Below are positions 6,094-9,027 of a DNA stretch of 12,023 nucleotides, one piece after another. Position 1 is the stretch's first letter, and every line of letters starts with the position of its first letter. The notes beneath the pieces are model-generated. The model did not search any database. It was not told the DNA's origin and saw nothing but the letters and a program-made list of their open reading frames with translations. This stretch comes from a virus. The stretch lies in the UHGV virus genome UHGV-1573643. One strand, written 5' to 3'. The position numbers and the translations under genes were made by a program.

Positions 6094-6677
6094 GGCACTT
6101 GCCAGAGAGCATCATGCAACTGGATACCTCCGTTGCACTGGTTGCCCCAGCCATGCCAGCCATCAGGTAAATCACCGCGAGCAAACAGCTCAATACGAGG
6201 AACATCACCTAACAGTCTTACCAGCTTGTCACGAACCACATCAGGCTTCCGTGAATGTTCCAGACGAGGCGATGTAAACGACTGAATGATCCCCGCATCA
6301 AGGCGGGTCGGCAGTTTGCCTTTTACCGCAAACAAGCAATCTTCACTGTTCGCACGAGTCATATGCCCCATCCCCATCACCAGCTTATCTGGCTGTCGGC
6401 TACCACATTTGTTCCATGTGAAGCCCTTCATGGTCATAAGCCTGAACCCCCATGCTTTCACCACCAGCAACGCTTCTTCTGGCTGAGTCGGAACCCACCA
6501 CATGGCCAACAAACACGATTCAGGATTAGCAAGTTGCCAGACAGGAATACGAGCAATCTCCTCAGCTTTCATCGTTGGATACTTAAAACCAGCTCCACGA
6601 TTCCCATCCTTACACTTGTCTTTGTATTCCCAGGGGGGATCTGCATAAATCAGATTAAACAATGCAATTGCCTCCAT
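6090..6677 (-). CDS. MT-A70 family N6-adenine DNA methyltransferase (195 aa)
   Basis: N-terminal motif LIYADPPWEY (DPPW catalytic motif of the MT-A70 family); ATG at 6677 with GGAGG upstream. Confidence 0.8.
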   Translation of the reverse strand: MEAIALFNLIYADPPWEYKDKCKDGNRGAGFKYPTMKAEEIARIPVWQLANPESCLLAMWWVPTQPEEALLVVKAWGFRLMTMKGFTWNKCGSRQPDKLVMGMGHMTRANSEDCLFAVKGKLPTRLDAGIIQSFTSPRLEHSRKPDVVRDKLVRLLGDVPRIELFARGDLPDGWHGWGNQCNGGIQLHDALWQVP

Positions 6678-6986
6678 GTTAGTTGTGCCTCCGGCGCTTA
6701 TCTCCGGCAGTCATAACGCTGGCCAGCTCTACAGCAAACACAACGAAAAGGGCACTAACCAGACTGATTAATGCCCTTGCCTGTTGTGTGCCGGATATCG
6801 CCCGACAACGCTGTTTTGGTAACACGGCTACAGTTCCGTGCCGCTCCAGCTTTTACCCCTTTGCGGATAACAGGCCCTGCCTGTAACTTAGCCCCACGTT
6901 CGCCCGAAATGCGCACCAGGCACGCATAAAGATGAGCACGAAGGAAGTAACTCCACCGCGCTTATCTTTATGTGTGAGAGTGAATT

Positions 6987-7061
6987 GGTGGCCCCTACCG
7001 GATTTGAACCGATGACCGTGCGATTATGAGTCGCCTGCTCTAACCACTGAGCTAAGGGGCC
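6987..7061 (-). tRNA. tRNA with CAU anticodon (Met, or lysidine-modified Ile2-type)
   Basis: Minus-strand sequence GGCCCCTTAGCTCAGTGGTTAGAGCAGGCGACTCATAATCGCACGGTCATCGGTTCAAATCCGGTAGGGGCCACCA folds as a cloverleaf: 7 bp acceptor stem GGCCCCT/AGGGGCC, D-arm GCTC/GAGC, anticodon loop CTCATAA, T-loop TTCAAAT, encoded CCA. The 5' half matches my recollection of E. coli ileX (not searched). Confidence 0.85.
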
Positions 7062-7067
7062 ATATTT

Positions 7068-7157
7068 GATCTGTTTGTCTGGTGTGGCGCCGCGCACGAA
7101 AATCCCAGCCAATAAATTCAGGATTTTTGGGCGCGGCGGCATATCAGACAAACATGG
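7068..7157 (-). other. long imperfect inverted repeat immediately 5' of the tRNA
   Basis: Arms about 36 nt (7068-7106 vs 7121-7157) with about 5 mismatches and a 14-15 nt loop (CAGCCAATAAATTCA); outer parts TGTTTGTCTG/CAGACAAACA and the GC-rich core pair. Confidence 0.5.
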
Positions 7158-7198
7158 TTGATGCGTGCGCTCATGAGAAAAGCGCATAGAATGTTGTA

Positions 7199-7233
7199 AC
7201 TATATATTTATATAATTATAGAAATATATATTA
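7199..7233 (-). promoter_or_regulatory. AT-rich palindromic motif, copy B
   Basis: Minus-strand reading TAATATATATTTCTATAATTATATAAATATATAGT shares the 14 bp core CTATAATTATATAA with copy A; directly 3' of the Rz1 stop and upstream of the palindrome and tRNA. Confidence 0.45.
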
Positions 7234-7440
7234 CTTGGGGCAGTTGATTTCCCATGCCCTGTTATGAGCCAGAATATCTTTCTTTGTCTGGCGGTCCATA
7301 ACATCGATATCGTGATCAGTCAGGTAGATGGGCTTTACCCAATCACAGGCGGTATCAACCACCACCGGGACGCTTCCACGACTCCCGCAGCTCGCGATCA
7401 ACATCGTCATCAGCCATATGGTTAACACTCTGCTGTACAT
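7231..7440 (-). CDS. o-spanin (Rz1-like outer-membrane lipoprotein), nested in and extending past the i-spanin gene
   Basis: Signal peptide with lipobox MYSRVLTIWLMTMLIASC; reading frame embedded in the 3' part of the i-spanin gene and extending 124 nt beyond it, the overlapped spanin architecture. Confidence 0.6.
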   Translation of the reverse strand: MYSRVLTIWLMTMLIASCGSRGSVPVVVDTACDWVKPIYLTDHDIDVMDRQTKKDILAHNRAWEINCPK

Positions 7441-7633
7441 TCCCCACCTCTTTTGTCACTTCTATACGCCGCTCCGCAGTGGCTTTTACGGCGGCTGCAT
7501 TCTCATTAATGCGCTGCTTTTCAGCTTCATCTTCGGCCTTTTCTCGCCCCTTCATACGACCAAAACCAAATGCGCCGAATGCAACCAATATAATGGTGCC
7601 GATAAATGACAAAACGGCTTTCAAACCAGTCAT
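7355..7633 (-). CDS. i-spanin (Rz-like, 92 aa)
   Basis: N-terminal TM segment AVLSFIGTIILVAFGAFGF followed by a charged periplasmic segment; ATG overlaps the endolysin stop (ATGA at 7633..7630). Confidence 0.65.
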   Translation of the reverse strand: MTGLKAVLSFIGTIILVAFGAFGFGRMKGREKAEDEAEKQRINENAAAVKATAERRIEVTKEVGNVQQSVNHMADDDVDRELRESWKRPGGG

Positions 7634-8172
7634 ACCACCACTCGCTCTTTCATCCAGCCATAGACAAACGACTCATTTGCTTCGCGTTTCTCTGCCAGGT
7701 CCAGATAACGGTCGCCCTGCGTACAGTTCAGGGCCGTCAGCATTACCCGTTCGCCGTCTTTTCCCCGATTCCCAAGATAAGCACGTAATGCCGCAATGGT
7801 GCGCGGGCCGATTCGCCCATCCACATCCATATCTGGATACAACTTCCCGCCACGGTTGAAAACATTCAACCAACGTTGAAGCATCTTCGTCGCCACAGTC
7901 GGCCCCATGTTGACGCCCGTATCGCACATCTCCGCCGCAATATCAGGGGAAAATTGCGCCACTTGGTCAAAACGAGGTCCATACCAATAATCACCTTCAA
8001 GAATCATCAGTGCCTGTTCGCGGGTTAAATCGCGCATATCGCCACGGTATCCATGAGCACGGGCAGTGTTCTGAGTAATGCCCCACATTGTTGGGCCTCC
8101 CTTGTCGTCAGGGTGATCCACATAGCCGCCCTCTTTTCCAAGAATGCTGTTAAAAATCTCATCTTTGGTCAT
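7630..8172 (-). CDS. endolysin, GH108-type N-terminal domain with C-terminal peptidoglycan-binding domain (180 aa)
   Basis: N-terminal ILGKEGGYVDHPDDKGGPTMWGIT matches the GH108 signature (EGGYV.DP.D.GG.T..GIT) as I recall it; position between membrane proteins and spanins. Confidence 0.8.
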   Translation of the reverse strand: MTKDEIFNSILGKEGGYVDHPDDKGGPTMWGITQNTARAHGYRGDMRDLTREQALMILEGDYWYGPRFDQVAQFSPDIAAEMCDTGVNMGPTVATKMLQRWLNVFNRGGKLYPDMDVDGRIGPRTIAALRAYLGNRGKDGERVMLTALNCTQGDRYLDLAEKREANESFVYGWMKERVVV

Positions 8173-8837: not shown

Positions 8838-8850
8838 TGAAATCCTCGTT

Positions 8851-8881
8851 AAAAAAAAAGCCCCGCCGAAAAAGGCAGGGC
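8851..8881 (-). terminator. tR'-like rho-independent terminator directly upstream of the lysis genes
   Basis: 8 bp stem 8860-8867/8874-8881 (G-U wobble in minus-strand RNA), loop GAAAAA, followed on the minus strand by nine U (complement of A-run 8851-8859); only about 13 nt separate the U-tract from the holin ATG. Confidence 0.7.
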
Positions 8882-9027
8882 TTCATAAAGCAACAAATTA
8901 CGCGGTAATCGCTTAACGCAGTTTTACTACGTTAAATGAAACACTACACCCAGTTACCACCTAAAACAAGGTTTTCCCATAAAAAAACCTTCATATCGTG
9001 GTTAATCGATCAATAAAAAAGCAATGT

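Follow-up and report, generated by a model that had tools for sequence, protein, structure and literature searches.

The window, by which we mean the whole stretch of 12,023 nucleotides that was analysed (UHGV virus genome UHGV-1573643), encodes on its minus strand, in this order, two holins, a GH108 endolysin and Rz/Rz1, followed by a non-coding spacer of about 550 nt that contains a tRNA gene, and by an MT-A70 gene. After the MT-A70 gene, and on the same strand, come small ORFs, the genes of two ParB-N-domain proteins and then, across the origin of the record, the terminase and structural genes. All genes in the homologous region of the window are on the minus strand, and no plus-strand gene is annotated in the corresponding stretch (about 12.8 kb) of the phage vB_YpM_39. 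This gene order agrees with an earlier note on this DNA, which had placed a tRNA between the lysis cassette and the MT-A70 gene. A strong intrinsic terminator is located directly upstream of the holin start (8850-8885, minus strand; GAAGCCCTGCC...GGCGGGGCTTTTTTTTT). Its presence before the holin suggests a late operon dependent on antitermination and, together with the location of all genes on the minus strand, is compatible with one late transcript extending across the spacer.

The window is 99.5% identical to the Yersinia phages vB_YpM_39, 41 and 44 (49 kb), and about 60 circular non-mobilizable plasmids match it at 98-100%. These plasmids are of about 48 kb (mostly 46-52 kb among those listed) and their hosts are Escherichia coli, E. 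albertii, E. fergusonii and Klebsiella aerogenes. The near-identity to phages on the one hand and to circular plasmids on the other means that the element is a phage-plasmid, that is, a plasmid-borne prophage that has also been isolated as virions; the term prophage, used in the earlier note, thus calls for refinement. The family is common in E. coli and is found in clinical and animal isolates. A literature search returned nothing on vB_YpM_39, nor on tRNA-Ile of phage-plasmids. The pSLy3 group lies outside this family and belongs to the SSU5 supergroup.

From the lysis genes towards the MT-A70 gene, the following features are referred to below:

7192..7235, minus strand: AT-rich array, in which an 8-bp unit (TATAAWTW) is present four times in tandem, immediately before the hairpin-tRNA unit
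7166..7186, minus strand: HP0, a short hairpin (7 bp) that separates the AT-rich array from HP1, seen in the minimum-energy fold
7072..7154, minus strand: HP1, an imperfect hairpin with 34-nt arms (7072-7105 and 7121-7154) that are 85% complementary, and a 15-nt loop
6986..7061, minus strand: tRNA gene assigned to tRNA-Ile2, anticodon CAU, with the CCA end encoded (ARAGORN, Rfam and the PGAP label of an identical copy)
6921..6976, minus strand: HP2, an imperfect hairpin with 25-nt arms (6921-6945 and 6952-6976) that are 80% complementary
6787..6885, minus strand: conserved non-coding block downstream of HP2, about 94% identical to Salmonella relatives
6738..6795, minus strand: HP3, a terminator-like hairpin that closes the non-coding unit (core 6778-6748, then UUUUCGUUGUGU), from a terminator scan
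6680..6735, minus strand: MT-A70 leader with a weak rydB-like match (Rfam RF00118, 27.3 bits against a gathering score of 50)

The tRNA gene is well defined. ARAGORN calls a single tRNA in the 12-kb window, of 76 nt and with anticodon CAT, and the Rfam tRNA model RF00005 matches it over the full model length with 67 bits (gathering score 29), so that the CAU tRNA reported in the earlier note is recovered by both programs as a canonical cloverleaf. The label 'Met' that ARAGORN assigns reflects the CAT anticodon only. When the gene was compared by BLAST with 5,426 complete E. coli genomes, matches were obtained in every genome, at a median of two places per genome, and those listed were all annotated as tRNA-Ile; an identical copy on plasmid NZ_CP032259.1 is likewise tRNA-Ile according to NCBI PGAP. 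By these annotations, the gene is closer to tRNA-Ile2 than to initiator or elongator tRNA-Met genes. It is 89.5% identical to ileX of E. coli K-12, with the same acceptor stem (positions 1-7 and 66-72), D arm and positions 27-42, and its eight differences fall in positions 43-44, the T arm and position 59. The host genes ileX and ileY thus share with it the acceptor stem, the D arm and the anticodon stem-loop save position 43 (G27-A43 in the phage, G27-U43 in the host), and differ from it in the T-stem and the variable loop; within the T-stem, two pairs are changed on both sides relative to ileX and are therefore compensatory. The acceptor pairs C4:G69 and C5:G68, which are major identity elements for E. 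coli TilS and separate its substrate from tRNA-Met (PMC11947777), are present in the phage tRNA, as in ileX. Taken together, the annotation, the identity to ileX and the TilS pairs place the tRNA almost certainly, on every sequence criterion, in the lysidine-dependent tRNA-Ile2 class, which is the ileX-like type named in the earlier note. A 99-aa ORF that spans the tRNA (6888-7187) was rejected as a gene, since it overlaps the tRNA, is unannotated in relatives and is replaced in Salmonella.

Outside the family, the closest homologue of this tRNA is the tRNA-Ile (CAU) of P1-like phage-plasmids (about 90 kb), at 94.7-97.4% identity, which is also a lysidine-type tRNA on an extrachromosomal prophage of Enterobacteriaceae. 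Its setting is different: the P1-like gene begins a few bases past the stop codon of the upstream ORF and stands upstream of the dnaB/ban replication gene, whereas the gene described here follows the lysis genes. The comparison proposed in the earlier note, with the ileZ-argN-argO region of Stx-converting lambdoid phages, is less apt. There, three tRNAs lie between the late promoter and the stx and lysis genes, and the tRNA-Ile2, likewise phage-borne and in the late region, may help with rare codons. That cluster is upstream of the lysis genes; in the window there is no such cluster, but a single tRNA downstream of them.

On both sides the tRNA is closely bordered by the hairpins HP1 and HP2: on the minus strand, the distance from the end of HP1 to tRNA position 1 is 10 nt, and that from the encoded CCA to the start of HP2 is 9 nt. 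Both repeats had been seen in the earlier note, the 5' one at 7068-7157 with arms of about 36 nt, in close agreement with the extent of HP1, and the 3' one as a 13-bp core (6925-6937 with 6960-6972) that is complementary at 12 of its 13 positions, the odd one being G-T on the plus strand, and that lies within HP2. Their predicted folds were compared with those of 200 dinucleotide shuffles. On the tRNA strand, HP1 reaches -40.3 kcal/mol (z -5.9) and HP2 -28.7 kcal/mol (z -5.7); on the opposite strand, the values are -56 (z -10) and -31.8 (z -6.9), respectively. In none of the four cases did any of the 200 shuffles fold as well. The whole region of 291 nt has a fold z-score of -6.5, and its minimum-energy fold adds a long-range stem of 7 bp between 7159-7165 and 6912-6918. 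Only six local inverted repeats reach 18 nt or more in the 49-kb genome of a 99.5% identical relative, with HP1 in first and HP2 in third place. The two hairpins are unlike each other, and neither belongs to a known RNA family: even with permissive thresholds in addition to the gathering ones, Rfam yielded nothing for them beyond generic matches resembling microRNA precursors. HP1 has no second copy in the 49-kb genome. Of 61 plasmids with HP1, all except one have it at a single place per record, as do three phages; the 40 plasmids listed are all of about 44-52 kb. Dispersed repeats or MITEs of the REP or ERIC-like kind were therefore rejected as an explanation, because the hairpins are single-copy and restricted to the phage-plasmid family.

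The comparison with relatives does not bear out a view of the hairpins as attributes of the tRNA. A search with HP1 alone retrieved the phage-plasmid family and three Salmonella plasmids, the two listed at 72-76% identity. In the Salmonella relatives (L003, L004, L015 and, from IMG/VR, the contig L005), the region is devoid of any tRNA. What they share with the window is the AT-rich array, HP1, the conserved block, HP3 and the base of HP2, and they also have a hairpin in the place of HP0. Their HP2 is homologous to that of the window at its base, by position and in part by sequence, and has an apex expanded to about 100 nt. Three architectures can be distinguished, in which the AT block and the downstream block are separated by 383, 601 or 895 nt, the difference being confined to the interval between HP1 and HP2. 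Conversely, the tRNA-Ile of P1-like phage-plasmids has no flanking hairpins (no inverted repeat of at least 12 nt within 600 nt), and ileX is a stand-alone host gene with only a 12-bp terminator hairpin downstream. Furthermore, a 361-nt query made of the hairpins and the tRNA gave matches covering most of it in only 70 of the 5,426 E. coli genomes, all 40 listed matches being on records of about 31-57 kb with a tRNA-Ile beneath; the prophage tRNA-Ile copies in the other genomes are therefore free of these hairpins. The tRNA and the hairpins are thus separable in both directions, and on these comparisons the hairpins belong to a conserved non-coding backbone of the phage family and are not accessories of the tRNA. 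The present analysis contributes this arrangement, in which flanking hairpins that are conserved backbone elements bracket an interchangeable cargo of structured RNA.

The hairpins are maintained by selection, and the pairing of HP1 is conserved along with its position. HP1 is invariant in the 25 copies of the tRNA type, and among its four distinct sequences four pairs have changed on both sides and yet remain paired. In the alignment of these four sequences, the proportion of paired cells is 86% and falls to 23-51% if the partner columns are shifted; the mismatch at position 11 stays a mismatch in all four. The same compensatory changes would equally appear in a DNA palindrome or a single-stranded DNA hairpin. 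Scans of IMG/VR and metagenomes yielded only near-identical copies of the tRNA type and one variant of the Salmonella type, so that the covariation rests on two diverged lineages in the collections searched, and its statistics are thin. Searches with the MT-A70 protein mostly led to unrelated phages with a mosaic MT-A70 and added one relative of the Salmonella type, NZ_LN890526.1; another match, CP088505.1, was rejected as a relative for its unrelated context. No further relatives were found in a scan of genome contigs for the AT-rich array. We consider it likely that the hairpins are an RNA structure of the backbone.

In the Salmonella relatives, the slot of the tRNA is taken by a structured module of about 130 nt (L005 8190-8320; L003 1628-1758). 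The module is also present, at about 88% identity, in non-coding gaps of the unrelated temperate phages Citrobacter phiNP and Klebsiella P7641, and it was located at L038 2001-2126, at L039 2001-2106 and at the loci L040-L092. Exact copies of its 26-nt core occur in 54 IMG/VR contigs (36 distinct versions). When 18 versions are aligned, a closing stem and inner stems emerge, with seven pairs changed on both sides. Rfam gave no match for the module, and a full-text literature search with its core sequence found no paper. It can be regarded as a candidate for an undescribed RNA family, widespread in temperate phages of enterobacteria. A decayed class II tRNA, suspected by eye in the Salmonella cargo, is unsupported by ARAGORN and Rfam. 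As the Salmonella cargo is itself a structured RNA, it supports the view of the hairpin-bounded slot as a place for stable RNAs.

With regard to the role of the tRNA, the earlier note had suggested compensation for rare codons, and codon use makes this plausible. In vB_YpM_39, AUA accounts for 15.3 per 1000 codons genome-wide, and for 20.4 per 1000 (31% of the Ile codons) in the structural genes; early and lysis genes have about 8 per 1000. The rate in the structural genes is about four times that of E. coli, which is 4.9 per 1000 codons (PMC12514573). The structural genes of a Salmonella relative that lacks the tRNA have 14.0 AUA per 1000 codons (23% of the Ile codons); this comparison sets one genome with the tRNA against one without it and is confounded by G+C content (44.4% and 47.7%, respectively). 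The enrichment in AUA fits codon supplementation by tRNA-Ile2. Phage tRNAs for the decoding of rare codons are well known, and the present one is a further example, with a clear rationale in codon usage.

Directly upstream of the hairpin-tRNA unit, the AT-rich array is also shared, its 31-nt core being identical in the window and the Salmonella relatives save one A/T position. At least eight intergenic sites of the phage have such an array, in many cases immediately after a terminator and ahead of an operon (in L034, at 27459, 32488, 33196, 33269, 37023, 38240, 42935 and 44071), and a Salmonella relative (L037) has eight of them, some in the same intergenic gaps. Three of the copies are followed by a common sequence of about 30 nt (AAAAGTGCTTTACAGGTGGGAAAAAATTTC), and arrays flank the gene of a small ParA-type ATPase and of its 82-aa partner. 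The array shows no match to the sigma-70 consensus. It is probably an operator or a promoter, and the arrays resemble scattered operators or centromere sites recognised by a single regulator; we take their 8-bp period to recall the sites of ribbon-helix-helix proteins.

These observations can be brought together in a composite explanation, which is favoured on balance: a functional tRNA-Ile2 that tops up AUA decoding would be set between backbone hairpins with a processing or stabilising role. In this scheme, C34 would become lysidine through the TilS of the host, and the tRNA, once charged with isoleucine by IleRS, would read AUA, so that the phage tRNA would supplement a tRNA that is scarce in the host for the benefit of the AUA-rich late structural genes. 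HP1 and HP2 would bound a slot for a stable RNA, occupied by the tRNA in Escherichia and Yersinia and by the unrelated structured RNA of about 130 nt in Salmonella. The precursor may come from the late transcript or from a promoter in the AT-rich array, where a transcription start is presumed. Since the array is probably an operator or promoter, both sources may contribute, namely late read-through and a regulated start of its own. With a start of its own, HP0 and HP1 would make up a 5' leader of about 130 nt, and HP2, the conserved block and HP3 a trailer. RNase P and RNase E would cut in the AU-rich single-stranded linkers of 9-10 nt beside the tRNA, and the long helices would keep the folding of the tRNA independent of its flanks. 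After cleavage, the new 3' end of the upstream RNA may be capped by HP1, and the new 5' end of the downstream RNA by HP2.

Such a specific role of HP1 and HP2 in processing or stabilisation is the more tentative part of this explanation, conceivable rather than probable, although processing sites are still the likeliest of the readings offered in the earlier note. An analogy of mechanism is offered by the stems, processed by RNase III, that border stable RNAs or lie between cistrons, as in the stems of rRNA operons and the early sites of phage T7. As in these, long imperfect helices with mismatches, of at least about 20 bp, are found on either side of a stable RNA; the two cases differ in that there is no sequence relationship and that the structures described here are two separate local hairpins and not one long-range stem. 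The helix length of an RNase III substrate (about two turns, at least 20 bp) is reached by HP1, with 29 of 34 positions paired, and by HP2, with some 20-25 positions, so that both hairpins (34 bp and about 25 bp) would be long enough as possible substrates of the enzyme. A bolder extension, which we regard as doubtful, would make of HP1 and HP2 the borders of a dedicated and conserved slot for the expression of stable RNAs, with different RNAs exchanged between lineages and the helices as generic signals of release or insulation, for instance RNase III sites, comparable to the stems around rRNAs. If the hairpins are indeed processing or insulating signals, they would represent a simple natural design for the expression of a stable RNA inside a long phage transcript, and would provide a handle on how non-coding modules move between temperate phages.

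A different kind of explanation, in line with the recombination remnants named in the earlier note, would see HP1 and HP2 as features of DNA recombination: they might delimit a mobile cassette, be its scars, or form a landing pad for the insertion and exchange of the tRNA or other cargo. The lineages, with their three architectures, do differ in cargo precisely from HP1 (plus about 8 nt) as far as HP2, and the occurrence of the Salmonella module in unrelated phages implies that modules move. Several observations speak against it. HP1 is unlike HP2, the aligned sequences show neither direct repeats nor target duplications where the cargo joins its flanks, the neighbouring genes include no recombinase, and the hairpins are single-copy, restricted to the family and stay in place whatever the cargo. 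Moreover, compensatory change maintains the pairing, which a scar would not need, and homologous recombination in the conserved flanks explains the swaps of cargo equally well. Such a role is thus unlikely.

The functional form might also be the plus strand, as an antisense RNA, as a single-stranded DNA hairpin involved in priming or replication, or as a palindrome bound by a protein. In the window, both hairpins fold more stably on that strand, above all HP1, which is the reverse of what is predicted for an RNA element of the sense strand. The wobble-type mismatches are A-C on the tRNA strand and become G-U pairs on the plus strand; there are three of them in HP1 and two in HP2 of the window and one in HP1 of L005. 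The remaining mismatches are pyrimidine-pyrimidine on the sense strand and so purine-purine on the plus strand. In Salmonella, HP2 favours the sense strand by 9 kcal/mol (-52.4 against -43.2), and the two strands of HP1 differ by only 3-5 kcal/mol, so that the strand signal given by G-U against A-C is inconsistent between the lineages. There is no promoter-like site on either strand in 6500-7700, none of the genes annotated in the homologous stretch of vB_YpM_39 is on the plus strand, and arms of 34 nt far exceed the known half-sites of proteins. Given the inconsistent strand signal and the lack of a promoter-like site or gene on the plus strand, an antisense or single-stranded DNA role is therefore a minor rival, and rather improbable.

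Finally, the earlier note had considered terminators for lysis read-through, and it is very improbable that HP1 and HP2 stop read-through from the lysis genes or delimit the tRNA transcript in this way, because these stable stems, although located after the lysis genes, are followed by no U tract (HP1 by GAUCAAAUAU, HP2 by CCUGGUGCGC), the terminator scan flags only 6778-6748 on the minus strand, and HP1, lying downstream of the AT-rich array and upstream of the tRNA, would block expression of the tRNA from the array and from the late transcript alike; with no U tract and a single copy, the hairpins are neither intrinsic terminators nor dispersed repeats.

The remaining parts of the spacer are conserved to different degrees. 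At the HP0 position, the Salmonella relatives have a different hairpin, also of 7 bp. The conserved block downstream of HP2 is about 94% identical to that of Salmonella, against 71% nucleotide identity for the adjacent MT-A70 coding sequence, which reflects either a constraint stronger than that on the neighbouring coding sequence or a recent exchange. Small hairpins are predicted within the block. A 52-aa ORF on its plus strand was rejected, since most Salmonella substitutions are non-synonymous and both ends of the protein differ. Between HP2 and the block, a spacer of 17 nt (6886-6902) carries a cluster of 12 substitutions in five of the 25 copies of the tRNA type, which suggests the replacement of a short patch and not a series of point mutations.

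The stem of HP3 is kept in the Salmonella relatives, with two compensatory pairs and an expanded apex. Its base (CACAAC...GTGCYCTTTTCGTTGTG) is common to the hairpins that flank the module of about 130 nt in Citrobacter phage phiNP (L038 1878-2004 and 2235-2350), and the GTTGTG tail is also the 5' strand of the closing stem of the module in most of the other phages that bear it; this sharing of a base hints at alternative pairings or shared module boundaries. In the MT-A70 leader, the rydB-like match recurs in the relatives at 25.7-29.1 bits, below the gathering score as in the window, and the leader of the Salmonella type (L003 and L005) includes a 19-nt stretch identical to the rydB consensus (UGCCGGAGAUAAGCGCCGG), at which the window has the same sequence.
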